A stretch of DNA of 39,183 bases from NCBI GenBank assembly GCA_035538475.1, contig DATLKH010000373.1:1-39183 (forward strand), written 5' to 3'. The translations under genes were made by a program, and so were the position numbers. The notes beneath the pieces are model-generated. The model saw nothing but the letters and a program-made list of their open reading frames with translations, searched no databases and was not told the DNA's origin. Position 1 is the stretch's first letter; every line of letters begins with the position of its first letter. Below are positions 2,133 to 21,318 of this stretch, piece after piece. The stretch is from Candidatus Dormiibacterota bacterium (GTDB lineage Bacteria; Chloroflexota; Dormibacteria; Dormibacterales; Dormibacteraceae).

Positions 2133-3165
2133 ACCGGCGACGCTGGTCGCTTTGATGGTCGCGGGACTGGCCTTTGCGGTCGGGCTTGCTCCCACGCGTC
2201 AGCAGCAGCGCCGGTTGGTGATTCGTGGCACCACCGGACTCGCGGGTGCAGCCATGGTTGCACTTGCTCCCACGCTGATTCTGGCGATTCCGGTGCTGGT
2301 CGGCCTCGGCGTGCTGCATGCATCGGTTGGAGGCAGATCGAAATTCACGGTGCGCCTGCGACCGATTGCAATGGCAGCGGGACTGCTTGCGCTTGCCCTG
2401 CTGTTCGCCGGCGTCGCCGGCCCTGACGTGCTGCAGCGTTTTGCCGCGATAGGCGCCGTCGCAGGGCTCGCGGCGGCGATCGGAGTCGTGCCTTATCTGC
2501 ACGAACTCGACCCCGACGTTCCCGCGTCAGCTTCGCCCATCGCCTGGCTTGCCTTCATCGGACCGCTGCTCGCTTCGGTGGCAGTGCTGCGCGTGGAGCA
2601 GGTGTTGACAGTCGACGCCGACGGCGTGCTTGGCGCAACTTTGATCGGCCTCGGTTTGTTGAACCTGGTCTGGGGCAGCATCTCGGCCTGGCGAACCGAA
2701 ACCGACATCGAGGCGTGGCGGTACTCGTTCGTCGCCGACTGGGGTCTTGCGCTGTGTGGATTCGGTCTGGCTGCAGGCGATGGGCGCAGCGCCGCGGTGC
2801 TGATCCTGTTCACGATCCTGCTCGGCCGGCTCCCGCTGTACCTGGTCTGGCAGCAGTCGGTGCATGAGAAGGTCCCCACCGAAAGACCCATCAATCTCGT
2901 GGTCGCCGGGTTGCTCGCCGGTTCTGCGCCGTTCGCGGGTTTTGCGGGCCGCATCCTGCTCCTGCGGGGCGCCACTCAGATCTACTGGCCGCTGGCAATG
3001 GCCATCGCGATCGGGTTGCTCTTGTGGCTGCCTGGATCGTTGCGATTGGGTCGCAGCATCGGGCTGCCCCGCGCAAGACAGGCGGTTCTCGTCGCGATCG
3101 TGATCGCCTTGAATGTGACCGCCGGCCTTTATCCGCTGCCAATCCTTTCGGCCGCCGGATATTGA
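2122..3165 (+). CDS. Polytopic membrane protein, possibly a second degenerate antiporter-like subunit
   Basis: A GTG start at 2122 overlaps the preceding gene by 11 nt. The protein has more than 8 predicted TM stretches. The segment VPYLHELDPDVPASASPIAWLAFIGPLLASVAVLR resembles the same region noted in the first protein. Confidence 0.5.
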   Translation: MAPEPATLVALMVAGLAFAVGLAPTRQQQRRLVIRGTTGLAGAAMVALAPTLILAIPVLVGLGVLHASVGGRSKFTVRLRPIAMAAGLLALALLFAGVAGPDVLQRFAAIGAVAGLAAAIGVVPYLHELDPDVPASASPIAWLAFIGPLLASVAVLRVEQVLTVDADGVLGATLIGLGLLNLVWGSISAWRTETDIEAWRYSFVADWGLALCGFGLAAGDGRSAAVLILFTILLGRLPLYLVWQQSVHEKVPTERPINLVVAGLLAGSAPFAGFAGRILLLRGATQIYWPLAMAIAIGLLLWLPGSLRLGRSIGLPRARQAVLVAIVIALNVTAGLYPLPILSAAGY

Positions 3166-3971
3166 TCCAGGTCATACAGTCCGCCGGCGCGCATCTGTTG
3201 GCGCTTGCGGTGTATCCAGGGCTGCTGGCCATGCTCGCGTTCGGTGGCGTGGTTGAGCTCGCGTGGATGCGATTGGTGACGCGCGAAAGGGCGATGCCAA
3301 GGCTGCCTCGGCGCCGGCCGGGGCCGGTGGTGGTCACCGTTGCGCTCTGCGCGATGCTCGCCTCAGTCCAGGCGGCGGCTCCACTCAGCCCAATGCTCGC
3401 ACAGGAACGGAGCGTCGTCCTGGCAGCGGCAGGACTTCTCTTCACGACGTGGGCGGAGCTGGCGCTCAGTGTCGAGTACGCCGTGGAGCCAAGGCTGACC
3501 CTCCTGGTTCAGGTTTTCTGGCTGCTCGCGGTTTTGGGTCCGGCGGTTCAGCTCGAGAGCCTGCGCCCGCAGGTTCTGGGTAACGTCCAGGTCTCTGGGC
3601 TGCTTCCGGTCAAGGCCGCGAGCGCATTCCTTTATCTGCTGTGCCTGCCGGCTCTGCTGCGCCTGTGGCCGGTGGTGCCTCCGGGTGAGCGACGCGCGGG
3701 CCCACGTCTGGATGCGGTGCGCGTTCTGAGCTGGTTTCCCTACTGCGGCCTTTTCACGACCCTGTTCATTCCTCCGGCGCCCGACGACCTGCTCGGCGCG
3801 CTGCGCTTCTTCAGCCTCTCGGTGGGGGTGGCGGCGGTGGCGCTGCTGCTCGGAATCGTGTTGAGGCGCCGCGGCGCCCCTGCGACGCGATCGCTGTACA
3901 CCCGCGCTGTGGCGCCTTACGCGGTCGCGGTGCTGATCGGCGTGATCATCACCTCGGTGCTGATGCGCTGA
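3162..3971 (+). CDS. Polytopic membrane protein with a weak NuoH/HycD-like N-terminal motif
   Basis: A TTG at 3162 overlaps the upstream TGA (TTGA). The N-terminal LAWMRLVTRERAMPRLPRRRPGP loosely recalls the ERK-x-x-x-x-x-Q-x-R-x-GPN motif of complex I subunit H. The part of ORF 3024.. upstream of 3162 overlaps the previous gene and is rejected. Confidence 0.45.
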   Translation: MIQVIQSAGAHLLALAVYPGLLAMLAFGGVVELAWMRLVTRERAMPRLPRRRPGPVVVTVALCAMLASVQAAAPLSPMLAQERSVVLAAAGLLFTTWAELALSVEYAVEPRLTLLVQVFWLLAVLGPAVQLESLRPQVLGNVQVSGLLPVKAASAFLYLLCLPALLRLWPVVPPGERRAGPRLDAVRVLSWFPYCGLFTTLFIPPAPDDLLGALRFFSLSVGVAAVALLLGIVLRRRGAPATRSLYTRAVAPYAVAVLIGVIITSVLMR

Positions 3972-7111: not shown

Positions 7112-7464
7112 ATCAGCTGCGCGTAGCGGTCGTAGATTTCTCGCAGCTCAGCCGGCGGCTCGACTCGATGTTTCTTCATCACATCGAACAGGCTGAGGAT
7201 GTGACGCACTCCGGCGAGGGTCACTCCTTTTTCGCGCGTCAGATGCTGAATCACCTGCACTTTGCTGATATCGCGCGGCGAGTAGCGACGCCGGTTCGTG
7301 TTGGTGCGATGCGGTTCGATCAGTTGGGCGTCCTCGTAAAGCATCAGCGTTCGTGGGTGCGTTTCCAGAATCTCGGCGGCAACACTGATCGTGTACAGCG
7401 GCTTGTCGAGATCGCTGAAAGATTGGTTGTTGTTGCCGCGATGGCCGCGATTGTTCATGTGCAT
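7108..7464 (-). CDS. MerR-family transcriptional regulator, HspR-like
   Basis: LYTISVAAEILETHPRTLMLYEDAQLIEPHRTNTNRRRYSPRDISKVQVIQHLTREKGVTLAGVRHI aligns by eye with the HspR HTH region. An ATG at 7464 shares one nt with the tadC stop (TGATG). The longer ORF starting at 7536 would overlap tadC. Confidence 0.8.
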   Translation of the reverse strand: MHMNNRGHRGNNNQSFSDLDKPLYTISVAAEILETHPRTLMLYEDAQLIEPHRTNTNRRRYSPRDISKVQVIQHLTREKGVTLAGVRHILSLFDVMKKHRVEPPAELREIYDRYAQLI

Positions 7465-8339
7465 CAGCGGAACGAATTCAAAACTTGAACGATGGCTGGG
7501 CCAAGGAGAACGATCCACAACACCGGAAAGATGCATCCCACCATCGGAAAAACCATACGGGACGAGGCTTGCGCAGCCCGCTCTTGTGCGCCCTGGCGCT
7601 GACGGCGTCGCATCTCGGTGGCTTGAACGCGTAGAAGTCGGGCGATGGGAACACCCATCTGGTCGGACTGGACGATCGATTCGACGAGATGATGCAGGTC
7701 CGGCACGCCGGCGCTCTCGGCCATGCTTTCGAGGGCCGCCATGCGCGGACGCCCCAACCTGATTTCGCGCAAAACCTTGCCGATCTCGTCGCCCAACGCG
7801 TTGTGGAATCGCTCGGTGATGCTCAGCAATCCTTCGTCGAGGCTCATTCCAGACTCGACGACAAGGGTCAGCAAGTCGGTGGCCTCGGCGAGCGACTTCT
7901 GGATCTCACGCCGGCGCTGGCCGATGCGCTGCTCGATCCAGAGGTTGGGCAGGATGAAACCGACGGCCGCAAACAACGCGCCCGCCAGTGGCGCGGCAAT
8001 CACTATCGGCAGGCCGGTCCGAACGATCGCTCCAAGCGCAAGCCCGACCACGGCCATCAAGGCGGCCACGCTGTAGCGGACCGACTGGAACGCGGCTGGT
8101 GTGAAGCCGGCGGGGTTGCCCGCCTGGTTGAGCTTGCGCCGAAGCTGGACCGCAGTCCCCGCCGGGAGCCGTGACACCGGTCGAAAGAAAACCTCGATCC
8201 GCCTCAGCAGAGTCGGTCTTGGCGCCTGGGTGACGTGGCCGCCGTTGGCGGCTGCCGTGCGCATCTGGTCGATCGCGATGAAGTAAGTGATCACGACCAC
8301 CGCACTGATCAGACCGGCGCTCACTGCAATTGGAGACAT
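7464..8339 (-). CDS. tadC: Type II secretion system F-family membrane protein (TadC-like)
   Basis: T2SSF-type sequence (EIQKSLAEATDLLTLVVESGMSLDEGL...) flanked by TM helices. It is the second of two tandem T2SSF genes. Confidence 0.8.
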   Translation of the reverse strand: MSPIAVSAGLISAVVVITYFIAIDQMRTAAANGGHVTQAPRPTLLRRIEVFFRPVSRLPAGTAVQLRRKLNQAGNPAGFTPAAFQSVRYSVAALMAVVGLALGAIVRTGLPIVIAAPLAGALFAAVGFILPNLWIEQRIGQRRREIQKSLAEATDLLTLVVESGMSLDEGLLSITERFHNALGDEIGKVLREIRLGRPRMAALESMAESAGVPDLHHLVESIVQSDQMGVPIARLLRVQATEMRRRQRQGAQERAAQASSRMVFPMVGCIFPVLWIVLLGPAIVQVLNSFR

Positions 8340-8344
8340 GTTGG

Positions 8345-9289
8345 TCAGGCCTCGAGGGCCGTCATGCGGCGGATGATCAGGTTTCCGATGAGGATCATGA
8401 CCGCGGCCAAAACCATCATTCCGTAGCCGACCAACGTGCTGGTCATCGGCGCGTAGTAGCCGGGTACGAAGACATAAAGTCCCAGCGCGAGCAGGATCGG
8501 CAAGCCCGTGATGATCGTCGCGGAAGCTCGCGACTGCGCGGTCAAAACGCTCATGTCGCGTTTGGTTTGCACGCGATCGCGCAGCGTGTCCGAGATGTTG
8601 TCCAGCACTTCGGCCAGATTTCCGCCAACTCGAACGTGCAGCAGGATGGCGGTGACGATGAACTCGAGGTCGGGGCTGTTGATGCGAAGCAGCAGCGCGC
8701 TCAGCGCGTCCTCCACCGAGATTCCAAGCGTGATCTCGGTGGCTACGCGCTCGAACTCGGTGGAAGTCGGCGGCTGAGATTTTTGGGCCACCGTCTCGAG
8801 CGCGCGATCGATCGCGTAGCCGGTCTTCAGCGAGTTGGAGATCAACTGCAGCGTGCTGCCAAGTTGGTCGTTGAACAGCTGCTGCCGGCGGCGCTGCAAG
8901 TACGCGACAACGAGCGGCGGGATCACGTAGCCGACCACGCCGAGAACAATCGGACCCAGCCCGAATCCGAAACGGAAGAGTCCGATGAGCACGCCAAGAG
9001 CGACAGCGCCGATGCGGATCAGCAAGTACTCAGGGGGTGTGATGTTCAACCCGGCCCGCGCCAGGTCTTCGCTCAACGTTGGCTTCCCCTGACCCCTGCG
9101 GCGCTGGCTCAGGTTCTCAGCGGCCGGTTTGAGCAATCGGTCGACGAGCTCGCGCGGCGTGGCCCTTGCGACAGGGCCCTGCACCGGCACGCGCGCCCGT
9201 TCCTTGCGAACCTTGTCCAGCGCCCAGAAAAAGACGAAGATGGCGGCGGCCATCGGCACGGCGACGATCGTCTCCGGCGGGAAGTTCAT
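8345..9289 (-). CDS. tadB: Type II secretion system F-family membrane protein (TadB-like)
   Basis: T2SSF-type sequence (FNDQLGSTLQLISNSLKTGYAIDRAL...) plus TM helices. An ATG at 9289 forms an ATGA overlap with the cpaB stop. The longer ORF starting at 9472 overlaps cpaB and is rejected. Confidence 0.8.
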   Translation of the reverse strand: MNFPPETIVAVPMAAAIFVFFWALDKVRKERARVPVQGPVARATPRELVDRLLKPAAENLSQRRRGQGKPTLSEDLARAGLNITPPEYLLIRIGAVALGVLIGLFRFGFGLGPIVLGVVGYVIPPLVVAYLQRRRQQLFNDQLGSTLQLISNSLKTGYAIDRALETVAQKSQPPTSTEFERVATEITLGISVEDALSALLLRINSPDLEFIVTAILLHVRVGGNLAEVLDNISDTLRDRVQTKRDMSVLTAQSRASATIITGLPILLALGLYVFVPGYYAPMTSTLVGYGMMVLAAVMILIGNLIIRRMTALEA

Positions 9290-10107
9290 GCCGAGAACAG
9301 GGTGGGGTAGGCGGTCTCCACTGCCTGAAGCGTCACCCCTCTGGCCGAGTTGATGGACGGGCATCCGGGGTCCGGCGCTTGAGTGCTGTCTTTCAGGTAG
9401 TCGTGGAACGATTCGAGCGTGTACTTGAGCGAGGCATAGGTCATGAACCAGTTCAGGATCTCGGCCTGGCACTGGGTCACGACCACGGTGAGACTGTTTG
9501 CCCCCGAATTTGCTGCCGACGCAGGCGTGCCGACGCGAATCACGTGCAGGTTGGTGAAGATCGTCTTGTCGGCCACGCGGCCCGTGCCTGACACGGTTGC
9601 GATGACCGAGATGTAATCGTCGGCCTGGATGTTGTTGGCGACGCCCTGCAGCTCGCTGGTCGGAATGGTGAAGGCGACGTAGCCGGCCGGGATCGGAAGG
9701 TACTCGGACTGGGCGCCGAGCGCCTGGTTCGGTTTCGCGACCTCGTTCGCCGTGATCGCGCTTCCGGCCGGGATGGCGACCAGCGGCACCATGCCGACCA
9801 CGTCGCGCAGGGCCTGGAAGTAAACCTTGGGGTATGCGCCCGGGACGGGAATGCTCTGGGTGCGGAGGGCGTCGGCCGCGATCGGGACGCGGGCCTGCAG
9901 GTCCTGGGCCGCGACCACCACCGCCTGGGTAGGCGTTCCGTTCGTGTTGCTGGCGTTGAGCGCCACCAGCACGAAGGCGGCCATGACGATGAGAGCCAGC
10001 AGAATGCCGAGCAGCGTGAAGGGTCGGCGTGAAGTAATCCCGCTAAGGGTCGTCAAAGCCGACCCATCATAGGCAAGATATCCCGGTGCCGAACCCCCAT
10101 AAAGCAC
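9286..10107 (-). CDS. cpaB: Flp pilus assembly protein CpaB/RcpC-like (N-terminal TM anchor plus SAF-like domain)
   Basis: RRPFTLLGILLALIVMAAFVLVAL anchor followed by VVVAAQDLQARVPIAADAL...IPAGYVAFTIP, which is typical of CpaB. An alternative in-frame TTG start lies at 10056. Confidence 0.75.
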   Translation of the reverse strand: MLYGGSAPGYLAYDGSALTTLSGITSRRPFTLLGILLALIVMAAFVLVALNASNTNGTPTQAVVVAAQDLQARVPIAADALRTQSIPVPGAYPKVYFQALRDVVGMVPLVAIPAGSAITANEVAKPNQALGAQSEYLPIPAGYVAFTIPTSELQGVANNIQADDYISVIATVSGTGRVADKTIFTNLHVIRVGTPASAANSGANSLTVVVTQCQAEILNWFMTYASLKYTLESFHDYLKDSTQAPDPGCPSINSARGVTLQAVETAYPTLFSA

Positions 10108-10667
10108 CCGGCGAAACGACCTTTTCCGGCCGCGGCCGCGAGCGGGGACAGTCGCTGGTCGAGTTCGCGGTCTCTTCAGTCGTCCTGCTGCTGCTGGTGG
10201 GCGGGCTGGTCGACGTCGGGCGGGCCATATACATCCAGGAGTCCCTTTCCAACGCCGTCCGCGAAGCGGCGCGGCATGGCGTCTGGTTCGATGCGCCCAG
10301 CCTTTCCCACCCTTACCTCTACGACGGCCAGATCAAATCCGAAGTTGACACCGAGCTGGCGGCCGTCAACCTGCCGGCGGCGACCATCAAGGGCAACTGC
10401 CCGACGCCGGCTGACGGCAACCTGTACCACAACCCGCCCTATCAGTCCTCGTTCTATCCGACTGCCGCGAACCAGCCCTGGCTGTACATCTGCTACAACA
10501 ACCAGGCCGGTCTCGATTATCCGAGCAGCCCCGCCACGAACCTCGCGCAGGAAGACCTCAACGTCATCGTCCTCTATTCCTATGCGCCCCTGACCCCGAT
10601 CGTCACCAACCAGTTCGGGATCTTCAAGGTGGCCGCCAACGAGCACATGACGGTGCAGGGCAGTTGA
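10086..10667 (+). CDS. TadE-like pseudopilin / pilus assembly protein
   Basis: N-terminal ERGQSLVEFAVSSVVLLLLVGGLVDVGRAIY...AVREAARHG matches the TadE N-terminal domain pattern. Confidence 0.7.
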   Translation: MPNPHKAPGETTFSGRGRERGQSLVEFAVSSVVLLLLVGGLVDVGRAIYIQESLSNAVREAARHGVWFDAPSLSHPYLYDGQIKSEVDTELAAVNLPAATIKGNCPTPADGNLYHNPPYQSSFYPTAANQPWLYICYNNQAGLDYPSSPATNLAQEDLNVIVLYSYAPLTPIVTNQFGIFKVAANEHMTVQGS

Positions 10668-11206
10668 TGAAGCGCTACTTCTCTCAGCGCTCGCAGGCCC
10701 TGATCGAGTTCTCGCTCGTTTCGCCCGTGTTGCTGTTGCTGCTGTTTGGAATCGTCGACATGGGCCGCGGCATCTTCTACTACGACACGCTGAACCATGC
10801 GGCGCGGGAGGGTGCGCGCACCGCAGTGCGAGCTTCAAACCAGCTTCCTAACAACGCAGACGTGTTGAACGCCGTCAGCGCTCAGATGCTGGGTACGCCG
10901 GTCTCAGAGGTCTGCGCCCAGGGACCGATCAGCTCCGGCACGCCGCCCGCCAACTCGGCCTGGCTCTACATCACCGAGCCAAACCCGCCATCGACGGTCG
11001 AGACAAGCCCGCCCCCCAACGCTCCAGGCGGCGAATACTCGACTCCCTCGAACGGATCATGCAGCGCGGTCAATCCGGCAGGCGGGAACGCGCAGCTGCA
11101 GGTGACACTGCGCTTCAACCTCGTTTTCATCACGCCCGTGATTTCGCAGGCGGCGGCAAATCACGTGGTGCTTTCCGCGGCCGCGGTTTACCGGACCGAG
11201 TACTGA
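10664..11206 (+). CDS. TadE-like pseudopilin / pilus assembly protein (second copy)
   Basis: QRSQALIEFSLVSPVLLLLLFGIVDMGRGIFYYDTLNHAAREGAR. The start (TTG 10664 or ATG 10667) overlaps the previous stop. Confidence 0.75.
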   Translation: MMKRYFSQRSQALIEFSLVSPVLLLLLFGIVDMGRGIFYYDTLNHAAREGARTAVRASNQLPNNADVLNAVSAQMLGTPVSEVCAQGPISSGTPPANSAWLYITEPNPPSTVETSPPPNAPGGEYSTPSNGSCSAVNPAGGNAQLQVTLRFNLVFITPVISQAAANHVVLSAAAVYRTEY

Positions 11207-13206
11207 TGAAATCCCCACGAAATCAGAGGCTGCGCCGTGATTTCGCGGGGGCCCCTGTGATGCGCCGGCAGCAGGGACAGGCGGTGGTCTTGATCGCGCT
11301 CATGATCACCGTGCTCATCGGGATGGTCGCGCTCGCAGTCGACGGTTCACGTGGCTTTGCGATGCGGCGGGATCTCCAGGCTGCTGTCGACGCGGCTGCA
11401 CTCGCAGCCGGCGACAACTTCCAGCAGACCGCGAGCTACTCCAGCGCCGAGCAGGCGGCGACGTCGATCTTCGGCACCAACCTGCGTCTGTATACGAATC
11501 CGCCTTGCAATCCCTCATACGGCTCGCCCGGTCCGTCACCGCTGACCATCAACTGCACGTATCCCGACGGGACGGTGCTGACGCAGCAAGTCGTCTCGCT
11601 CGGGGCCCAAGGCAGCCAGTTCAACCTCAGCGCCCGGCGCACGCTGCAGCTCAACTTCGGCGGGCTGTTGACCAACGGGGTCAACCCAGCCGTCGCCGGT
11701 GCCGCGAGCGGCACCGTCAACAATTTGCTCTACGCACCCACTGTCGCAGCCCTCAACCAGGGTGGGTGCAGCGGATCCGGCAATCCGCTGAGCGTCAATG
11801 GATCGGGAACGCTGAGCATCACTGGCGATGTCGTCGCCAATGGCACGGTTAATGTGCTCTCGGGCGCAATGTCCGTCGCAGGAGACATCTACGCGCGCTG
11901 CCAGTCGAGCATCGCCGGGGCCACGAACACCTGCTATTCGAGCGGCCTGGGGGGTCCGTGCACTTTTCCGGATGTGATGGGGGCAGTTCGTTCCGGTTTC
12001 AAGATCGCAGACCCGTCGTACCCGATTCCTCCGCTCAACGGCACGGCACAGGGAATACCGGGTGCGAATGTCGTCATCTATCCGGGCACCTACGCCGCCA
12101 ACCCGCTGATCGGCGCGGGCAGGTGCTACTTCCTGACCGCAGGCGTGTACACGTGGCGGTCCGGGTACAGAGCCAACGGCGGCTTCGTCAGCAATGAGCT
12201 GAAGCCACCCGACGAGCCAAGTCCCACCGACATCACACAGCTCGCTGCGAAGCAGTTCTGGAACACCAACGGAGTCAACTGCGCGGGCTCATTCAAGCTC
12301 ACGGCGACGGCCGGTTCCGGATCGACCGTCGGCACCTATGGATTCAGATTGACCTCGATCCGGACGGATACGTACAACGGCGTCAGCTACACGCGGGAGA
12401 GCGCACCGTCGCGGTGCCAGTCACTGACGGTGAACATCTCGCAGGTTGCGACCGCGACCGTGAGCAATGTGCCCGGGGCGCAGGCCTACCGGCTCTACAT
12501 GTCGACCAATGGCTGCACGCCTCCATTCGGACTCGTCTACACCCTCGATGTCACCGGGACTCCGGAAAACGACAACCTCAGCGGCTGTCCGTGGGGGCCG
12601 TGCAGCCTGGGCCAGACGATGGTTTCGGCGCCTGCGTTCATCCTGGCGGGCTTACCTCTGCCCAACGCCGCGGCCGCGCCAGGGACTCCGGGCTCATATC
12701 CGCCGGACGACGAGAGGGCGCCCCTACAAGCCGGACTTCCGAACCAGAACGCGCCGCGGCTGACGCCGCCGGCAGGCGGTCGGGGAAACGAAAACGAGTG
12801 CGTAACGGCAGGCGGCGGCGTGCTGGTTTCGTGCCCTGCAGCAGTCACTCCGGGCGCGGTCGTCTTCTACATCCCCACCGGAGGATGCCTGAATGCGACC
12901 AGCACGAGTGACACGTTCATCTTCAGCGGATATCAGTACGACTGGATCTCGGTATACGAGCCGGGAGCAGGCAATCCGCCGGCCAACACCTGTCCCAACG
13001 TGATCGCCGCCGCAGGCAACTCCGCGTACATCGGCCTCGTCTATTTGCCCTCGGCCAGCCTAAATGTGCAGAGCAGCACGACATTCGAGTCGCAAGCCAC
13101 GGCCGGGATCATGGCCGACACCGTCAGCTTCACCGGGTCGCTGCCGATCATCACCTACGGCGCGGGTTACGCACCGATCCGGCCCGCCAGCAGACTGTCT
13201 AGCTGA
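11206..13206 (+). CDS. TadG-like large pilus-associated protein (Tad N-terminal domain plus ~600-aa Gly/Thr/Ser/Pro-rich extracellular region)
   Basis: RRQQGQAVVLIALMITVLIGMVALAVDGSRGFAMRRDLQAAVDAAALAAG is the TadG-type N-terminus. An ATG at 11206 overlaps the upstream TGA (TGATG). The ORF-track start at 11059 lies inside the previous gene. Confidence 0.7.
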   Translation: MKSPRNQRLRRDFAGAPVMRRQQGQAVVLIALMITVLIGMVALAVDGSRGFAMRRDLQAAVDAAALAAGDNFQQTASYSSAEQAATSIFGTNLRLYTNPPCNPSYGSPGPSPLTINCTYPDGTVLTQQVVSLGAQGSQFNLSARRTLQLNFGGLLTNGVNPAVAGAASGTVNNLLYAPTVAALNQGGCSGSGNPLSVNGSGTLSITGDVVANGTVNVLSGAMSVAGDIYARCQSSIAGATNTCYSSGLGGPCTFPDVMGAVRSGFKIADPSYPIPPLNGTAQGIPGANVVIYPGTYAANPLIGAGRCYFLTAGVYTWRSGYRANGGFVSNELKPPDEPSPTDITQLAAKQFWNTNGVNCAGSFKLTATAGSGSTVGTYGFRLTSIRTDTYNGVSYTRESAPSRCQSLTVNISQVATATVSNVPGAQAYRLYMSTNGCTPPFGLVYTLDVTGTPENDNLSGCPWGPCSLGQTMVSAPAFILAGLPLPNAAAAPGTPGSYPPDDERAPLQAGLPNQNAPRLTPPAGGRGNENECVTAGGGVLVSCPAAVTPGAVVFYIPTGGCLNATSTSDTFIFSGYQYDWISVYEPGAGNPPANTCPNVIAAAGNSAYIGLVYLPSASLNVQSSTTFESQATAGIMADTVSFTGSLPIITYGAGYAPIRPASRLSS

Positions 13207-16200
13207 CCGGTTCGGTCTCCGGCACCGGCGCGGTCGCCTCGACCGGCCCGGCGCCGTTGTGGTCGGTCGGCTCGCCGCGATTTTCGAGATGCGCGATGCG
13301 CCGGTGGAGCGCCGCCGCCGCTTTCGTATCGCCCAGATCTTCGAACCGCTCGATAGCGCCGCGCCATGTCGCCTTCGCGTCCTCGAGGCGGCCCAACCCC
13401 CAAAGCGCGTGCGCTCGCGTGGAGAGGGCGTCGGCCCGTTCCTTGGTCTGCTCGGCGGGAAGCAGCTGCAGCGCGGAATCGATGAGCCTGAGCACGTCGT
13501 CGAAAGCCCCGACAGCGAGCGCCTGCCGCGCCGCGTGGAGCAAGAAGCTCGCGGTGCGACCTGGATTGGCCGCCGTGCCCGCCTGATACAGGTGGTGGGC
13601 AATTTCCGCCGCGCGCTGCTCGGCCAGCTTGCCGTAGACACGCTCGAGCGTATCGGCCACGGCCAGGTGGTAAGCCTGCATGCGCGGCAGCGCCAGTCCG
13701 GCGAGCACGCGTTGACGAACGAGGTCGTGCGCGAATCGATAGCGGTCGTGGCCGAGGGCTGAAATGAAATGGCCGCGCGTAGCTTCGTCGAGCGCGTCAC
13801 GCAGCTCATGGCCTGCCAGCTCGCCGAACGCTTCCAGCAAACTGACCTCGAAATCGCGCCCGATGATGGCGGCCGCGACGAGCATTCGCTGCGCGGGCTC
13901 GCTCAGGCGCTGAATGCGCCGGCCGATCAAGCCGCGCACGCTTTGCGCAAGCTCGAGGTCTTCTTCGGTGAAGCTCGCTTGATGGCCGGCGCCACCGAGC
14001 ATGCTCTCCGACTCGGAGAGATAGAACAGGGAATGCTCGACGAAAAGCGGATTGCCTTCGGTCGCGGCCTGGATGCCGATGAGCTGGACCGGAGTCAGCG
14101 GCGTTTCCGCCAAACCGGCCGCAATCCGCTCGACATCTTGATCCGACAGCCGCCCGACGGCGATGCGCTGTGCGCGGCGGCGGCGCAACATCCGGGAGAG
14201 CGCGGTCGCAAACTGGCGGCTCGAGTCGAGCTCGGTGTCCCAATACGTGCCGAGCACGACCATTCGGCTCGAGCTCGAGCGCTCGGCGAGGTCTCTCAAC
14301 ATCGCGACCGTCGCCTCATCGGCCCAGTGCAGGTTGTCGAGCACGATCATCAGCGGTCTGTTGCCCTGGACCCCCTTCAAGAATTCGTGCACGGACTTGA
14401 AGAGCGTCTCGCGCAGCTTGTCGGCCGGAATCTCGGCAGCCGACGGGAGCGACCGCACCTTCTGGCGGAGATTTGAGGCGAGCAGGGCCAGCAGCGATCC
14501 GTGATGGCCCGTCGCCTCCAGCAGCGTCTTGGCCGTCGCGCTCGCCACAGCCGCGGTCAACACTTCGCGGAACGGTTCGTATGCCTCGCCATCGTTTTCC
14601 AGGCAGCGCCCGCTCAAGACGAGCCATCCCTTGCTTTGGGCTTCCGCGCTGACTTCGCTCGCCAGACGCGAGGCGCCGATCCCTGGTGCGCCAGCCAGGA
14701 AGATCACGCCGCCGGCTCCGGTGGCGGCCCGGTCCATGACCAGTCGAATGTCGAGCCGCTCCTGATCGCGATCCACGAAGCCCTCTGCGGCGGCGACCAC
14801 TTTGGGCGCTTCCTTCACTTCGGTCGGCGTCACCTGGTGCAGGCGCCATCGATCGGGGAAACCCTTCAGCTTGTAGCGGCCGCGGTACTCGAAATGCAGC
14901 TCCGCCACCGGGCCGACCAGCTCGCGGACGATCTCGGATACGAGCACCTGCCCGCCCTTCGCCTTGCCCGCGACGCGCGCGGCCACGTTGACGGCCGCGC
15001 CGAAGATGTCGCCGCCTTCCTCCACGACCTCGCCGGTGTTGACGCCGATCCGGATGCGGATCTTTCGATCCGGGTTTTGCTTGCTGTACTCCGCGATCGC
15101 CGTCTGAATCGCGAGCGCGCACTCGACGCCGTGGCGCGCGGAGCCGAAGCTGATCATGTAGCCGTCGCCGAGTCCTTTGATCCGGCGCCCCGCGTGCTCC
15201 GCGACCTTCTCCTCGATGATGGTCTCGTACGCCTTCATGATTTCGTGAGAGGCGGTGAAACCGCGGGTCGAGAGCAGCTTCGTGGACTCCTCGACGTCCG
15301 TGAACATGATCGTCACGGTGCCTTCGGTCTGACCCACGGCGAGGCTGCCGATGATGGTGTCGGCGGTGAGCGGCCCGGCGGGGTTGACGGGCTGACCCAG
15401 TCCTTCCGCGATCTCGCGCAGTAGGCCCTGTGATGCGCGGTAGCCGGCTTCACCCTGGGGATAGCGGACGGCGGTGAGCAGCCCGGACTCGACGGCGAGG
15501 CGCAGCTCGCGGCCGGCCGACTCCTTGCTGATCTTGCTTTCCCTCGCGTAATCGCTCGCCTTCAGCTCGGAGCCCTCGAATGCATCGGTGAGTGGCTGCG
15601 CCAGGCGCAGGCTCAACCCACGGCGGGAGATGATGCTTTCGATCACGGCTTGAATTCTTCGTGACGCGCCGACCGGTCCTGGGGAGCCTTCGTTCGACCG
15701 CACGGTCGGCAGCATTCCGGAGAAACCGCTGGACGCGGCGGCGAGCTGTCCGAGGGCGGTGGTGGCGCGAGCCATCGCGGTCGCGGCCTCCAGCGCTTGA
15801 GCTCCGTGCAAAGCGCTCGGGAAGCCCGGAATCGGCGTCGTGAGCTCGGGCGGGTAGATCACCTGTGGCGCCGCGGAAACGACCGGCGCGACGGGAGCTA
15901 CACCGGCCGGCGGAGGTGGCGCGTAAGCGGCTGGAGGCAGGGCCGCTGCCGGCGCGGCCTGCGGTTCGGCGGGCGTTTGGGGCGCGGCGGCTTGAAGGTC
16001 GGCCACCGCGGCGCGTGCCGCGTCGATCAGCTTGCGCATCTCTTCCTGCATCTCCGGGGTCTGAGCGGGAGCCGCTGCGGCCGGCGCGGCAGGAGCTGCC
16101 GCCGCCGGGCGTTCCGAGCTGAACGGCACGACCACGACCTGACGGACCACGTTCGGTTCGGCCTTGCCCTGCCCGCTGATGAGCGGGTCCTTGACGACCG

Positions 16201-17998
16201 GCATCATGCTGTCCGAGCCGGCGGGGATGAATCGAGATTTGGCCGGATCGAACAGGTCCTGGTCGACCTGCACGCCGTAGAACGCCGCTTTGTCCAAGGA
16301 CGTCGGGATGTAGCCGGTGGCGTTGAATTCGAGGCGCAGGTCGGGGCCCATGCCGAGCAGGAAGATGTCGCGCAGGATCGGTCCGTTTGCGTCATAGCCG
16401 ACGACCTCCGCGATCTGCGCGATCTTTCGGCGGCCGTCAGGCATGCGGGCCTGGTGCACGATCAGGTTCACTGCGGACGCGATCTGCGCGCGCACTGCTT
16501 CGAACGGAATGTCGATCGACGCCATCATCACCATCGTCTCGAGACGTGACAGCGCGTCGCGCGCGGAGTTGGAGTGAATCGTGGACATCGATCCGTCGTG
16601 ACCGGTGTTCATCGCCTGCAGCATGTCCAGCGCCTCGGCACCGCGGACCTCACCGACGAGGATGCGGTCGGGGCGCATTCGAAGGCTGTTGCGCAACAGT
16701 TGACGAATCGTCAGCTCGCCTTTGCCTTCGACGTTCGGTGGACGGTGCTCGAGCGCGATGACGTGCGGGTGATCGATCTGCAGCTCAGCCGCGTCTTCGA
16801 TCGTGATGACGCGCTGGTTGTGCGGGATGAAGCGCGCAACCACGTTCAGCGTGGTCGTCTTGCCGGAACCCGTGCCTCCGGAAACCAGGATGTTCATGCG
16901 CCCGAGCACGGCCGCTTCGAGGAACTCCGCCATGGCGGGACTCAAGCTCCCTTCGTGCTTGAGGTCCTCCATGCCCAGAACCGCGTCCTTGAACTTGCGG
17001 ATCGTGAGGGCGGGGCCGTGGATGGCGGCGGGCCGGATGATGGCGTTGACGCGGCTGCCGTCGGGAAGACGGGCGTCAACCATCGGATTCAAGCCGTCGA
17101 TGTGACGCCCGGTGGTGGCGACCATTCGCCGGATGGTTTCCAGCAGCTGGTTCTCGTCCTCGAAGCGAACGTCGGCTTTGGTGATCACACCACGGCGCTC
17201 GATGAAGATCTGGTCCGGACCGTTGACCATGATCTCGCTCACCGAGCGGTCGTGCAGCAGGCTGTCGAGCGGGCCGTAACCGACGGCGGCGCGCAGGATG
17301 ATGTCGGCGAGGGCCGACTTCTCCTGGGCGTTGAGCGTGATCCCGTCTTCGAGCAGGAAGCGATCGAGGTGCGTGCGCACGGCGCGCGAGAAGGCCATCG
17401 TGTCGCCGGTCGTGAGGCCGACATCGCGGATGAGGGCGAGGCGGTCTCTGAAATCGTTCGCGAGCTTGTTCAGGTCGCGGCCCTGACGAGCCGCGGCGGC
17501 GAGGATGTCGGATCGGCGCCGCTGCGGCTGTCCGGGCGGCGCGGCCGGCGCGGCCCACATTTCGACGAACTGCATCTCGAGCAGCGAGGGCGAGGCGGCC
17601 AGGGCCGGGATGACCCGGTTCACTTCGGTCAGCCGGATCTTGATCGCAATGCCCTCGGCTTCCTGGGTGACCCCCTGCTCGATGTATGCCGCGATCCACT
17701 CGCCATCGCGGAAGCGAAGGATCGCTTTGCGCGCCTGAGTCTTGTCCCCAGGGTCAGGCTCGAGCTCGGGATCTTCGACCGACCCGAAAACGACGTACTT
17801 GATGTCGCGCGTGGGAATGAATCGTGGTCGCTCGGCGTCAGGTGTCGGGTAGAGCGGATAGCCTTCGCCGCCGTCGAGAATGCGCGAATCGGATTCACCT
17901 TCCTCGAGCCCGCCGTCGAGCCGGTGGACGACCACTTTGAAGCGCATGGGTCCACCTTCAGATTTCCCGGACGGAGGCGCCGTGACGACCTCGCTCAT
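13199..17998 (-). CDS. 1,599-aa multidomain fusion: unknown N-domain, TadA/CpaF secretion ATPase, Pro/Ala linker, wHTH-like segment, class III adenylate cyclase, degenerate STAND (AAA_16-like) NTPase, TPR
   Basis: CpaF core: [17 protein letters not shown], Walker [10 protein letters not shown] (nt 16856-16879), [42 protein letters not shown]. Cyclase: [58 protein letters not shown]: FVDRDQE...[28 protein letters not shown]. All lie in one frame with no stop. GGAG sits 9 nt upstream of the ATG at 17998. Confidence 0.85.
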
Positions 17999-18054: not shown

Positions 18055-19056
18055 TCATTGCGAGCCGAAGCGCTCCGGTGGACGTCTGCGATCGAGCACC
18101 CATTTCGAGCCCGGCATGCGTTTGGCCACGCCCTTGACCTCAGCGGCTCGGGACGCGACCGCCGCCGCGCTGCTGTAGCTCGCCGGCTCGACCATCACGA
18201 CGCCGATGGAAACCGACACCAGCGGGCTGCGGAGCATGTTTCCGTTGCGCTCTTCACTTTCGATCCATCCGCGCTCGCGATCGACGGGGTCGTACAGCGC
18301 CGGGATCGCAGCGTCGAAACGCTTGGTGATCTCACTCGCGATCGCCTCCGCAAGTTTCGGCTCGGTGAGGACGACGAAGTCATCGCCGCCCACGTGTCCG
18401 GCGAAATGCTGGGGCGAGTGATTCTCTTCGAGGACCTCGAGGATGATCGTCGCCAGAGTCTTGATCACGTCGTCGCCGCGAAGGAATCCGTAATGGTCGT
18501 TGTAGCTCTTGAACGTGTCGATGTCCGGATAGAGGACCGCGAAACGCTGTCCATGCGCGAGGCGGCGGGTGATCTCGCGCAGGATGTCGCTGTTGCCGCT
18601 CATGCCGGTAAGCGGGCTCAGTCCACGAGCTGTGGTTGCACGCGTCATCACCGCGCGAAGACGCGCCACCAGCTCTTCCGGCATGAAGGGCTTGGTGACG
18701 TAATCGTCGGCGCCGCTCAGAAGGTGCTCGACCTTGTCTTTCAAGGAGTCGCGCACGGTCAGGAACACGACCGGAATCAGCCGAGTCCGGAAGTCCCCAC
18801 GAAGCTCGTTCATGATCTCGTCGCCGGTGACGTCGCCAAGCATCAGGTCGAGCAGGATGATGTCCGGCCGCAGCTCGACCTCCGCTTCGTGCGCGGCGCG
18901 CCCGTTGTTCACGGTCACGCACTCAAACCCTGCGCGCTCGAGCACGCGCTTCACCAGCCGTAGAACCTGGTCGTCGTCGTCGACCGCGAGCACCATGTCG
19001 CGATGCACCAGGACCGCGTGGTGGCGATCGATGGCCGGGCGGTCGGCGATGCTCAC
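18055..19056 (-). CDS. Response regulator (REC) fused to a GGDEF-family domain with a GGDDF active-site variant
   Basis: REC: MVLAVDDDD, DIILLDLML (acceptor Asp), VFLT, DDYVTKPF. GGDEF-like: SPLTGMSGN, YPDIDTFKSYNDHYGFLRGDDVI, HVGGDDFVVL. A GTG at 19056 forms a GTGA overlap with the upstream stop. Confidence 0.85.
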   Translation of the reverse strand: MSIADRPAIDRHHAVLVHRDMVLAVDDDDQVLRLVKRVLERAGFECVTVNNGRAAHEAEVELRPDIILLDLMLGDVTGDEIMNELRGDFRTRLIPVVFLTVRDSLKDKVEHLLSGADDYVTKPFMPEELVARLRAVMTRATTARGLSPLTGMSGNSDILREITRRLAHGQRFAVLYPDIDTFKSYNDHYGFLRGDDVIKTLATIILEVLEENHSPQHFAGHVGGDDFVVLTEPKLAEAIASEITKRFDAAIPALYDPVDRERGWIESEERNGNMLRSPLVSVSIGVVMVEPASYSSAAAVASRAAEVKGVAKRMPGSKWVLDRRRPPERFGSQ

Positions 19057-19268
19057 GCTCCGTCCTCGTGTCCGCGACGCGGCAGTTTCTCCGTGAGCGC
19101 GATCGCGCGCTCGGCTGCGCTGCGGATCTCGTGAATGTCCGCCTTGATCGCCTCCGGATCGTTCGTCTCGTCGGCGATCAGCTCGCTGTAATTCACGATC
19201 ACGGCGAGCAGGTTGCGAAACTCGTGGATCAGCGCTCGGGTCGGGTCTTCAGCCATCGGTCCGCTCAC
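19053..19268 (-). CDS. 71-aa free-standing DHp/HisKA-like phosphoacceptor domain protein
   Basis: ALIHEFRNLLAVIVNYSELI...EIRSAAERAIALTEKL resembles the H-box helix and second helix of HDFNNLL-type histidine kinases. No catalytic domain follows. GTGA overlaps at both ends support real translation. Confidence 0.6.
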   Translation of the reverse strand: MSGPMAEDPTRALIHEFRNLLAVIVNYSELIADETNDPEAIKADIHEIRSAAERAIALTEKLPRRGHEDGA

Positions 19269-19684
19269 AGCCGCTTCACCAAATGCCAGGAATTGACATC
19301 GCCATGGCGCTCGTAACCCAGCTGGTCGAGAATCGATCGGGCGATGGCGAGGCCGCGGCCCCGCTCGCTTTCGTGTCCAGGCATCTCGTTTGTCAGGTGC
19401 TCATGTGCGGCAGCGCCACGGTCCGTAAAAGTGGCCTCGGCCGTGTGGCCGTCGTAACGCAGCACGTACTCGACCTGATGGTCGGTGCCGACGGGGCGTC
19501 CGTGCGTCAACACGTTGCCTCCGATCTCGCCGAGGGCAATCTCGAAGAGCATGAGGGGGCGGTCGTCGACAGGTCGCTCCAGCGTGTCGCGCAGGTTCGC
19601 GAGCGACCTGTGGATGAGGTCGAGTCCGGGATCGACTTCGGTGAGAAATGCCCGAAACTCAAATTTCTCCTGATTACCCTCCAA
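19265..19684 (-). CDS. RsbW/SpoIIAB-like HATPase_c serine kinase (anti-sigma-factor type)
   Basis: N-box EIALGEIGGNVLTHG, G1-like FTDRG, G2 GRGLAIARSILDQLGYE, ~139 aa, immediately downstream of a STAS gene. TTG start at 19684. Confidence 0.8.
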   Translation of the reverse strand: MEGNQEKFEFRAFLTEVDPGLDLIHRSLANLRDTLERPVDDRPLMLFEIALGEIGGNVLTHGRPVGTDHQVEYVLRYDGHTAEATFTDRGAAAHEHLTNEMPGHESERGRGLAIARSILDQLGYERHGDVNSWHLVKRL

Positions 19685-19687
19685 GGC

Positions 19688-20029
19688 TTAAAGCCCGGTG
19701 AGGGCTTCCTCGACGGTCGCGTAATACGGAAAGACGCGGTCGAGCGTCGTCAGCTCGAGCACGACCCGAACCTGCTGGGTGGGTGCGGCCAGGCGAAGCT
19801 CGCCTTCTTTGCTGCGAATCTGCTTCAGGGCGGCGATCACCGATCCCAGGCCGGTCGAGTCGACGAAGCTCACGCCTTCGAGATCGATCACGACTTTCGG
19901 CGATCCGGCCACCGTCGCGTCGTTGATGGCGTCTTTCAAGATCGGCGCGCCGGCCACGTCGAGCCGCCCAGTAGGGGCGACCACCGTGGCGCCGTTGTCA
20001 GCCTGGCGAGTCTGGATTTCGAGGGCCAT
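19688..20029 (-). CDS. STAS-domain anti-sigma-factor antagonist (RsbV/SpoIIAA-like)
   Basis: VVIDLEGVSFVDSTGLGSVIAALK carries the conserved phosphorylatable Ser in DSTGLG, as in RsbV. The ATG at 20029 is preferred; alternatives are 20047 and 20098. Confidence 0.85.
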   Translation of the reverse strand: MALEIQTRQADNGATVVAPTGRLDVAGAPILKDAINDATVAGSPKVVIDLEGVSFVDSTGLGSVIAALKQIRSKEGELRLAAPTQQVRVVLELTTLDRVFPYYATVEEALTGL

Positions 20030-20102
20030 TTGCAGCCGGAAGAGCATATGGCAGATAGTCCCGACTTCAGCCCACTTGAGGTGGCCAACCGCGGCCACGA
20101 TT

Positions 20103-20165
20103 GCGGATCGTCCGGACCATCCGCGATTTTCGGCCGCGTTGGCACGCTTTGGTCCGGACTATCCG
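20103..20165. promoter_or_regulatory. Candidate operator pair in a divergent intergenic region: 22-bp near-palindrome GCGGATCGTCCGGACCATCCGC plus a 14-bp direct-repeat copy 42 bp away
   Basis: GTCCGGACCATCCG (20110-20123) and GTCCGGACTATCCG (20152-20165) match 13/14. The first sits inside a 20/22 palindrome at 20103-20124. Confidence 0.35.
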
Positions 20166-20181
20166 TGTAAAACTCCAGCCC

Positions 20182-21318
20182 GTGACCGGAAGTCCGGCGG
20201 CGGAACGAGTGCTCGTGGTCGACGACGACGAGGCCCTGGCCAGGGTCACCTGCCGAGTGCTGAGGTCCCGAGGCTTCGAGTGTGACGTCGCTCTTTCCGG
20301 CGCAGAAGCCAGGAAGCTGGTTGAGGCGCAGGACTACGCGATCGCGCTCCTCGACGTGAAGCTGCCCGACGAGTCAGGCTACGGGTTGCTCGAGGAGCTT
20401 CGCGCCACCCGGCCGGACATCGCCATCGTGATGATCTCGGGCGTCGACGACCCCGAGCTTGGAAGAGCAGCGCTCGAGCACGGCGCCTATGCCTACCACG
20501 TCAAACCGGTGGGCGGGACGCAGCTGTATCTGCTGGTCGTCAACAACTTGCGCCGGCGCGCGCTCGAGATCGAGAACCGAGCCAACGTCGAGCGGCTCGA
20601 GGGGTTGCTGCGCGAACGAGCCGAGCAAATGCGTCGAGCGGTCGAGCTCCAAGCGGGGATGCTGCCCCCACCTCCATACAAGGAACGTGGTTTCGAGGTC
20701 GCGGCGCACTTTACGGCTGCGCGCGAGATCAGCGGCGATTTCTACGACTGGTACTGCACGCCAGACCAGCGCTTCATGGTCACGCTCGGTGACGTCATGG
20801 GTAAGGGCCTGCCAGCCTCGTTGATGATGGCGACGGCACGGGCGGCGTTGCGTGGTGCTGCGTCGGTTGAGCCGATGGACGTGGGCTTGAAGCAAGCCGC
20901 CGAGGTCATGTCGGCGGCGCTCGAGGTCAACAACGCGTATGTGACTGTCTTCCACTGCCGCTTCGATCCGGACAGCGGCCGGCTCGAGTACATCGACGCC
21001 GGGCACGGGCACGCCCGGTTGCTGCGGGGTGGGACCGGTCAAGAGCTGCTGCCCCTTCGCAGCCTGCCGATTGGAATGTTTCCCGATGCTCCGTACTCAG
21101 TCGGAAGCGCGATCCTGAATCCTGGCGATTCGTTGGTGGTGTTTTCGGATGGGTTGCTCGACCTGCGCCCCGACCTGGCCACCAAAGACGTCCACCTGCC
21201 GTACGAGGTGCGGCGCGCCACCTCCGCGCAACAGATGGTCGACGCCCTGGCTCAGGGAGCGAGAGGCAGAGAGTTGTTCGACGACGTGACCGTGGTCGCG
21301 CTGAGGCGGACCGGCTAG
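20182..21318 (+). CDS. Response regulator (REC) fused to a PP2C/SpoIIE phosphatase (RsbY/RsbU-like)
   Basis: REC: VLVVDDDEALA, AIALLDVKLPDESG, YHVKP. PP2C: ISGDFYDWY, TLGDVMGKGLPASLMMA, VVFSDGLLD, DDVTVVAL. The GTG at 20182 gives a normal REC N-terminus. The ORF-track start at 20101 would translate the repeat region. Confidence 0.85.
   Translation: MTGSPAAERVLVVDDDEALARVTCRVLRSRGFECDVALSGAEARKLVEAQDYAIALLDVKLPDESGYGLLEELRATRPDIAIVMISGVDDPELGRAALEHGAYAYHVKPVGGTQLYLLVVNNLRRRALEIENRANVERLEGLLRERAEQMRRAVELQAGMLPPPPYKERGFEVAAHFTAAREISGDFYDWYCTPDQRFMVTLGDVMGKGLPASLMMATARAALRGAASVEPMDVGLKQAAEVMSAALEVNNAYVTVFHCRFDPDSGRLEYIDAGHGHARLLRGGTGQELLPLRSLPIGMFPDAPYSVGSAILNPGDSLVVFSDGLLDLRPDLATKDVHLPYEVRRATSAQQMVDALAQGARGRELFDDVTVVALRRTG

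Follow-up and report, generated by a model that had tools for sequence, protein, structure and literature searches.

The DNA analysed here (the window: 39,183 nucleotides (nt) of contig DATLKH010000373.1, assembly GCA_035538475.1, from a Candidatus Dormiibacterota bacterium) carries tad pilus genes and, convergent with some of them, one very long minus-strand gene in which a TadA/CpaF-type secretion ATPase is joined to a class III adenylate cyclase, a STAND-type module and TPR-like repeats. The open reading frame (ORF; 13199..17998(-)) runs unbroken for 1,599 codons from an ATG at 17998, preceded by GGAG and an 8-nt spacer, to a TAG at 13199, and the preceding gene, which encodes a receiver and a GGDEF-family domain, ends 56 nt before it. 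An initial annotation of this DNA had described one uninterrupted frame holding a TadA/CpaF ATPase, a class III cyclase and an AAA_16 domain. The ORF and its translation bear this out, and Pfam agrees, placing T2SSE at amino acids (aa) 240-516 (E 1.4e-67), Guanylate_cyc at aa 890-1050 (E 3.9e-22, 79.2 bits; gathering score 21.9) and AAA_16 at aa 1074-1248 (E 2.4e-24, 87.1 bits; gathering score 32.6) in the same protein. All of the motifs quoted in that annotation are found in the translation and are invariant in 65 homologues. The gene and its parts, in the order of translation, are as follows (HTH, helix-turn-helix):

13199..17998, minus strand: whole fusion gene, encoding the beta domain, TadA/CpaF ATPase, linker, HTH-like domain, class III cyclase, Lys-less STAND module and TPR-like region (ORF, Pfam, NCBIfam; 77/77 loci).
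17558..17950, minus strand: N-terminal all-beta domain, aa 17-147, modelled as two small Sm/SH3-like barrels, DUF6982-like (AlphaFold2 model).
16229..17521, minus strand: TadA/CpaF ATPase core, aa 160-590, comprising a helical N-terminal region, an N-terminal domain and a C-terminal domain with Walker A, Asp box, Walker B and His box (T2SSE, CpaF alignment).
16106..16228, minus strand: conserved tail after the ATPase, aa 591-631 (column conservation 0.91; also in the unfused long TadA P0124).
15800..16105, minus strand: Pro/Ala/Gln-rich, putatively flexible linker, aa 632-733, with one conserved helix at aa 646-672 (conservation, composition).
15332..15799, minus strand: conserved helix aa 734-766 and HTH-like domain aa ~767-885, the ancestral C-terminal domain of long TadA (alignment to unfused TadA C-termini).
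15320..15346, minus strand: fusion junction, aa ~885-893, where the cyclase begins directly behind the former TadA C-terminus (alignment with P0124).
14828..15331, minus strand: class III adenylate cyclase catalytic domain, aa 890-1057 (Guanylate_cyc, 79 bits; Ma1120).
13679..14782, minus strand: STAND-type module, aa 1073-1440, an AAA_16 nucleotide-binding domain with degenerate P-loop plus a helical region (AAA_16, 87 bits).
13274..13678, minus strand: C-terminal TPR-like helical repeats, aa 1441-1575 (sub-threshold TPR matches, TOMM_kin_cyc alignment).

The fusion is a genuine, conserved gene and not an assembly artefact. A search of 5.8 billion clustered proteins (90%-identity clusters) returned 913 relatives, the best 120 of which are all 1,547-1,653 aa long, contain T2SSE, Guanylate_cyc and AAA_16, and stem from assemblies in NCBI, JGI, ENA and Logan. 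When GTDB was scanned with one genome per species, at least 148 species-representative genomes were found to encode a relative, nearly all of them metagenome-assembled genomes (MAGs) of Dormibacterota, with older records labelled Chloroflexi. Our locus comparisons rest on the best 80 of these at least 148 relatives; 77 of the 80 loci hold both the TadA and the cyclase parts, and a single reading frame passes through the two in 77/77. The orthologue search that the initial annotation had proposed thus turned out in favour of the fusion. That annotation had also feared that a sequencing or assembly indel in the low-complexity Pro/Ala linker hides a stop codon or frameshift, so that separate tadA and cyclase-STAND genes appear merged. 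The linker DNA is indeed low in complexity and GC-rich, making indel errors plausible there, and within it the GC content of first codon positions exceeds that of third positions (GC3). However, GC3 is high in one and the same frame on either side of the linker, more than 100 full-length protein clusters exist, the actual junction does not lie within the linker (see below), and the 77 loci are independent, coming from different species, assemblers and projects. Because all of them keep one frame from TadA to cyclase, with no hidden stop or frameshift, such an artefact is ruled out, and we give it virtually no chance.

Some loci of the Dormibacterota type occur in MAGs of the SMAG catalogue (L009, L019, L020, L021, L026, L038, L045, L047, L060, L081) that carry other labels: Verrucomicrobiia, Eisenbacteria, Micrarchaeaceae archaeon, Nitrosotalea, Nitrosopolaris, Sulfotelmatobacter and Acidoferrum. 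These records are probably mislabelled or mis-binned.

In an exhaustive second search, with aa 1-1200 as query against 1.84 billion 50%-identity representatives, the fused architecture was represented once (P0121) and did not appear outside this lineage; the other large matches were tandem T2SSE proteins and fusions of TadA to RcpC, TPR or STAS. The TadA-cyclase fusion is found in one lineage only, as a single 50%-identity cluster. Databases annotate the protein only as 'ATPase, T2SS/T4P/T4SS family' or 'CpaF', and our literature searches on TadA-cyclase fusions and on Dormibacterota pili or cyclases found nothing relevant. The earlier remark that no such fusion is known therefore stands as far as descriptions in the literature go, but not for the databases, with their 913 matches and at least 148 species genomes.

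Other enlarged Tad motors were seen as well. Many metagenomic proteins of 830-1,605 aa contain 2-3 complete TadA/T2SSE units in tandem (P0122, P0123, P0125, P0128, P0129, P0132, P0134, P0135, P0140, P0156), and some of these are named CpaF of Chloroflexaceae. Further C-terminal fusions join TadA to RcpC/CpaB (P0165, P0168 and P0169, P0165 also having DUF7507), TPR (P0232) or STAS (P0217); extension of a Tad motor at its C-terminus is thus a recurrent event that has involved various partners.

Conservation figures given here are from one alignment of 65 full-length homologues, and the ratios of nonsynonymous to synonymous substitution rates (dN/dS) are from codon alignments with 50 complete orthologues. 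Purifying selection acts on all parts of the fusion protein (dN/dS 0.04-0.31), and the TadA core is the most constrained of them (column conservation 0.96-0.98, dN/dS 0.04-0.06), with Walker A, Asp box, Walker B/catalytic Glu and His box invariant in 65/65 homologues. Searching the PDB with this core gave Caulobacter crescentus CpaF at 345 bits, versus 158 for an archaeal GspE-like protein, 139 for FlaI and 122 for VirB11. The match extends over ~365 residues and reaches residue 490 of the 501 in CpaF, and the motor is therefore complete, ending near aa 590. Among NCBIfam models the best for this part is TIGR03819 (TadA family), whose 326.3 bits fall below the cut-off of 373.15, a weak negative given that the model describes a specific conjugal-transfer-associated TadA subfamily. 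R480, the equivalent of the retraction-face arginine R387 of CpaF, is invariant, and the tail that follows the ATPase has a dN/dS of 0.16. The fusion gene holds the only TadA homologue in the locus, as first annotated: tblastn with the ATPase domain finds nothing else in the window, and the 80 related loci have no second copy within ~6 kb (~1 Mb of flanks altogether).

In front of the motor, AlphaFold2 predicts an all-beta domain of 10 strands with high confidence (predicted local distance difference test score, pLDDT, ~95 over aa 20-145), for which Foldseek found no significant fold match in the PDB. Its column conservation is 0.78 and its dN/dS 0.22. DUF6982 (PF22478) matches it at 18.6 bits, below the gathering score of 24.5, and matches the related proteins P0131 and P0136 at 40.7 and 23.8 bits; we found no mention of DUF6982 in the literature. 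Behind the motor, the linker is poorly conserved (0.39-0.43, dN/dS 0.31) except for the embedded helix at aa 646-672 (0.95). Its main stretch, which lies between that helix and the conserved one at aa 734-766, varies from 43 to 104 residues across relatives and consists of 29% Pro, 22% Ala and 10% Gln, a length range and composition that fit a flexible tether. The second helix and the HTH-like domain are again well conserved (0.89-0.94, dN/dS 0.17). The latter shows a winged-helix-like conservation pattern, although it has no match in Pfam or in a profile search of the PDB; its AlphaFold2 model is poor (pLDDT 59), and the top Foldseek matches of that model, MarR proteins, are non-significant (E >=0.5). 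Of the winged-helix segment originally annotated here, we thus retain a conserved HTH-like domain, for which winged-helix identity is plausible but unproven.

The cyclase domain appears fully equipped. The metal-binding residues D901 and D945, the ATP-specifying pair K941 and D997, and the transition-state residues N1004 and R1008 are each present in 65/65 homologues, in agreement with the full ATP-type catalytic set assigned at the outset, and the domain as a whole is strongly conserved (0.94, dN/dS 0.12). Its closest solved structure is that of mycobacterial Ma1120 (E 5.5e-29). Class III cyclases act as dimers, with active sites formed by pairing. These observations suggest that the domain is catalytically complete and should make cyclic AMP (cAMP).

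The module that follows is less conventional. The AAA_16 domain of the annotated STAND NTPase is there, but its P-loop, GAPGIGAS, has lost the Walker A lysine: that position is Ala in 51, Thr in 7, Val in 3, Ser in 3 and Met in 1 of the 65 homologues, and Lys in 0/65, with the register checked by alignment to the GPPGTGKT of RuvBL1. The Walker B motif reads VLDN in the window protein, and DD in 57/65 and DN in 8/65 homologues. Column conservation of the module is 0.80-0.87 and dN/dS 0.13-0.25, and the region has no real match in the PDB. Because the P-loop lysine is missing in every homologue, canonical nucleotide-driven STAND switching is unlikely, so that the 'STAND-type switch' proposed earlier is doubtful, and the module is probably a scaffold rather than a working NTPase switch. 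The C-terminal region is helical and conserved (0.81, dN/dS 0.19), as annotated; TPR identity is plausible but unproven, since Pfam TPR models match only below their thresholds (E 0.03-0.9). The NCBIfam model TIGR03903 (TOMM_kin_cyc) aligns across aa 893-1523 with 145 bits.

Shorter, unfused proteins from the 1.84-billion search (P0124, 852 aa; P0131, 779 aa; P0139, 702 aa) locate the join. They align to the fusion protein over aa 14-677 (beta domain, ATPase, tail and first linker helix) and also over aa 770-882 (the HTH-like domain, 32-38% identity; 32-42% when further unfused TadA C-termini are included), and then end; the end of P0124, '...LTSDSVNSKIIASMRVTR*', aligns exactly where the cyclase starts in the fusion. 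The P0124 family is about 855-870 aa long and comes from Dormibacterota as well. Since this unfused long TadA holds both the Pro/Ala linker and the HTH-like domain and stops where the cyclase begins, the alignment identifies these two as ancestral parts of long TadA, and the cyclase-STAND-TPR cassette as an addition at about residue 890. The join had been suspected at nt 15800-16150, in the Pro/Ala linker; alignment with long TadA moves it to nt ~15320-15346, or aa ~890.

Unfused long TadA (P0124, P0273, P0283; ~855-870 aa) has the same beta domain, ATPase, tail, Pro/Ala linker and HTH-like domain as the fusion (57-64% identity) but lacks the cyclase, STAND and TPR parts. In two genomic contexts it occupies the same locus position, convergent with tadG-tadE-tadE and followed by cpaB-tadB-tadC, whereas upstream of it lie genes for Lon and a DEAD-box helicase, in place of the STAS, RsbW-like kinase and receiver-GGDDF genes found at the fusion. 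The fused gene is thus the positional orthologue of the locus's Tad motor gene. No separate cyclase-STAND gene, which would have been Rosetta-stone evidence, was found within 10 kb of the unfused orthologue. In one such locus, two genes for cyclic nucleotide-binding-domain proteins lie ~6-8 kb upstream of the unfused tadA (L082 2082-4266), which may be coincidental.

The genes around the fusion are in keeping with a tad locus joined to a signalling block:

7464..10107, minus strand: cpaB/rcpC, tadB and tadC, the latter two encoding platform proteins (Pfam RcpC/SAF and two T2SSF matches; conserved synteny).
10086..13206, plus strand: tadE, tadE and tadG-like pseudopilin genes, convergent with the fusion gene (Pfam TadE, Tad; synteny, also at the unfused orthologue).
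18055..19056, minus strand: receiver plus GGDEF-family gene with a GGDDF motif (Pfam; always adjoins the fusion gene).
19056..20098, minus strand: partner-switching genes, with STAS at 19688-20098 and an RsbW-like HATPase_c_2 gene plus a small HisKA-like ORF at 19056-19690 (Pfam; STAS conserved upstream in the loci).

Along the window, genes for ribosomal proteins and housekeeping functions (L21, L27, Obg, NadD, RsfS) are followed by tadC, tadB and cpaB on the minus strand, by tadE, tadE and the tadG-like gene on the plus strand, and by the convergent fusion gene; beyond this are the upstream block (STAS, RsbW-like kinase, HisKA-like ORF and receiver-GGDEF) and then genes for a receiver-SpoIIE phosphatase, two histidine kinases and a Ser/Thr kinase. 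The ATPase gene of a tad locus usually sits between cpaB and tadB. Here cpaB is directly followed by tadB, with no ATPase gene between them, and the six tad genes, all within 6 kb of the fusion gene, are accompanied by no other ATPase. The same gene order is found in an 82%-identical relative and, as far as contigs reach, in every related locus.

The neighbouring receiver-GGDEF protein (18055-19056) has GGDDF (HVGGDDFVV) in place of the canonical GG(D/E)EF, invariantly in 65/65 loci, and by this motif may be a non-canonical or inactive diguanylate cyclase. Further out, the region 19056-21318 (both strands) holds the STAS and RsbW-like kinase genes, the 67-aa HisKA-like ORF (with a HEFRN H-box) and a divergent gene for the receiver-SpoIIE phosphatase. 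This partner-switching set invariably accompanies the fused form and does not occur next to the unfused orthologue. The existence of a TadA-STAS fusion elsewhere (P0217) suggests that STAS signalling and Tad motors may be functionally connected. Near the start of the window, 157-3971(+) contains three consecutive ORFs for very hydrophobic multi-pass membrane proteins (478, 347 and ~315 aa) with no Pfam match; the AT skew of this stretch is strong (-0.2 to -0.33), and tandem repeats are absent.

With moderate confidence, we propose that the fusion is the locus's own pilus motor and that, by way of its flexible linker, it keeps six competent cyclase domains attached, which would link cAMP synthesis to the pilus machine. 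The ancestral motor of the phylum would already have been a long TadA, with a double beta-barrel domain, a CpaF-type ATPase, a Pro/Ala linker and an HTH-like domain; in one lineage, a cyclase, STAND and TPR cassette would then have been joined directly to its C-terminus, with the signalling block (STAS, RsbW-like kinase, receiver-GGDDF) directly upstream of the fused form. CpaF is a hexamer that works on a TadB/TadC-type platform (PMC11300603, PMC12019362). By analogy, the ATPase part would assemble as a hexamer on TadB/TadC and power pilus dynamics, and each subunit would carry, on a tether of ~45-105 residues, a catalytically complete cyclase domain that needs a second one to form active sites. 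Given a CpaF-like hexamer and the cyclases' need to pair, six cyclase domains (up to three dimers) would therefore be held at high local concentration at the pilus base, and cAMP output would depend on, and be localised to, assembled motors. A flexible linker of 43-104 residues favours tethering over rigid mechanical coupling. The STAND-TPR part would most likely serve as a nucleotide-independent scaffold or as a partner-binding gate on cyclase pairing, and not as a switch driven by ATP. In Pseudomonas aeruginosa, a class III adenylate cyclase and cAMP are under the control of the type IV pilus machinery, of which the motor ATPase PilT is a part (PMC10187167), and the fusion would amount to a covalent short-cut of this surface-sensing route (Pil-Chp, CyaB).

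A more specific version, which we regard as unlikely enough to be offered only tentatively, would make the motor a sensor-transmitter: the assembly state of the TadA hexamer, or its ATP-driven cycle, would control the pairing of the tethered cyclases, converting pilus mechanics into cAMP within one polypeptide. One conceivable trigger is that the motor stalls under load once the pilus has attached to a surface, and feedback might possibly pass through the N-terminal beta domain. If true, such a motor would be the most direct mechanochemical link known from a type IV filament to a second messenger.

Several points weigh against the motor-tethered cyclase. We infer hexamer formation, cAMP synthesis and the dependence of the cyclase on motor assembly or activity from sequence, and the length and flexibility predicted for the tether speak against close allosteric or mechanical coupling. 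Control of the cyclase could lie wholly with its own STAND-TPR region, the motor being a mere anchor, or, by analogy with CpaF, a bulky C-terminal appendage may chiefly affect motor direction and not signalling: in Caulobacter, retraction is blocked when mCherry is fused to the C-terminus of CpaF (preprint 10.64898/2026.02.24.707734). A stand-alone TadA may also be encoded elsewhere in these genomes, our search having covered the window and flanks. Motif scans of the window and of loci L001, L003, L014, L082 and L083 found no Flp pilin or prepilin peptidase, no TadZ/CpaE gene was found near the locus (window 7464-13206; loci L001, L082, L083), and the window shows no evident gene for a cAMP receptor.

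The second of these thoughts can be taken further, in that the C-terminal cassette might mainly control the motor, the cyclase being a dimerisation element or a secondary output. A 2026 preprint proposes that CpaF retracts by contacting the platform with its C-terminal face (10.64898/2026.02.24.707734), and the invariance of R480 on the corresponding face, the non-enzymatic partners attached to TadA C-termini elsewhere (TPR in P0232, STAS in P0217, RcpC in P0165, P0168 and P0169) and the presence of a tethered C-terminal domain in ancestral long TadA would all fit such a role. However, six invariant cyclase residues and a dN/dS of 0.12 are hard to square with dispensable catalysis, and a flexible linker of 43-104 residues makes constitutive steric blocking improbable, so that we consider control of the motor rather unlikely to be the cassette's main purpose. 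Motor regulation and cAMP signalling are in any case mutually compatible.

It is also conceivable that the ATPase was recruited into a signalling protein, to which it would contribute ATP-dependent oligomerisation or sensing, and that the pilus is powered by another TadA encoded elsewhere. The fusion gene does end a signalling operon (STAS, RsbW-like kinase, receiver-GGDDF), converges on the pseudopilin genes from outside the cpaB-tadB-tadC string, and scores 326 with the NCBIfam TadA equivalog, below the cut-off of 373; the search for a second TadA, moreover, reached the window and flanks and not whole genomes. Against this stand the unfused orthologue, found at the same position in tad loci that have neither the signalling block nor any other ATPase, the failure to find a further TadA in the window and ~1 Mb of flanking DNA, and the exceptional constraint on the TadA core (96-98% column conservation, dN/dS 0.04-0.06), which fits a motor with many partners. 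The initial annotation had left the choice between a motor with a cyclase and a recruited ATPase undecided; because the positional orthologue, within the same tad gene arrangement, is a TadA that is ordinary apart from its length, we favour a pilus motor that carries a cyclase and find recruitment decidedly improbable. A role in anti-phage defence, as a Pycsar-like cyclase or Avs-like STAND sensor fused to an ATPase by chance, was considered and rejected. STAND-TPR proteins are common in defence systems, and PADLOC matches the cyclase weakly to PycC (29.6 bits). That match reflects class III cyclase homology only, however, and the Lys/Asp pair points to ATP, the STAND P-loop is inactive, there is no effector gene, and the chromosomal tad/signalling locus is conserved across the phylum, all of which leaves defence a very slim prospect.

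How pili signal surface contact to the cell is an open question: Pseudomonas uses a multi-protein chemosensory relay from type IV pili to cAMP, and the Tad pili of Caulobacter trigger second-messenger changes by unclear means. The presence of motor and cyclase in one polypeptide suggests a pilus machine wired directly to a second-messenger signal, and a strongly conserved Tad motor with a competent cyclase would be a natural minimal system for such coupling. The fusion also bears on the proposed flip-over retraction of CpaF, in that its large natural C-terminal appendage resembles the perturbation that blocks retraction in Caulobacter. It indicates that selection can maintain a STAND module whose P-loop lysine is gone, and it would add a physiological trait to the Dormibacterota, an abundant but uncultured soil phylum.

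Each part of the protein is of a known kind (CpaF/TadA, class III cyclase, cyclase-AAA-TPR cassette), and it is the junction with a secretion ATPase that is new. Like the bifunctional motor ATPase CpaF of C. crescentus (PDB 8rjf, 8rkd, 9e24), the motor part has N- and C-terminal ATPase domains with the full motif set and keeps the retraction-face Arg, and like CpaF/TadA genes in general the fusion gene is found with tadB/tadC, cpaB and tadE/G genes. Unlike CpaF, it has ~1,000 additional C-terminal residues (linker, HTH-like domain, cyclase, STAND, TPR) and, at the N-terminus, a domain predicted to fold as a double beta-barrel where CpaF has a disordered NTD0; its gene lies outside the cpaB-tadB-tadC string, and, unlike at CpaF loci, no cpaE/tadZ, flp or prepilin peptidase gene is nearby.

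The closest solved relatives of the cyclase, Ma1120 (PDB 4wp3) and Rv1900c LipJ (1ybt), align over the whole catalytic domain (E 5.5e-29 and 5e-20, respectively) but have other partner domains, without a link to secretion ATPases. The order class III cyclase, AAA_16, helical/TPR repeats is shared with the actinobacterial cyclase-AAA(STAND)-TPR-LuxR proteins typified by Rv0386, Rv1358 and Rv2488c of Mycobacterium tuberculosis, the domain organisation of which is surveyed in PMC2447327, and with TOMM kinase/cyclase proteins (TIGR03903), in which the same cassette follows a kinase. The fusion differs from the Rv0386 type in ending after the TPR-like region, with no match to a LuxR/GerE HTH, in lacking the Walker A lysine, and in placing the cassette behind a secretion ATPase. 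Rv0386 reportedly uses Gln/Asn in place of the Lys/Asp pair, whereas the fusion has the canonical ATP-specifying residues. The missing LuxR domain excludes it from the Rv0386 type, just as the missing P-loop lysine excludes it from the canonical STAND NTPases. With the Pil-Chp-CyaB system of P. aeruginosa the likeness is a functional analogy that implies no homology of the coupling parts: there, separate proteins (the PilJ chemoreceptor, the ChpA kinase and others) serve a type IVa pilus, whereas in Dormibacterota the motor and cyclase of a Tad (type IVc) pilus are combined in one polypeptide.

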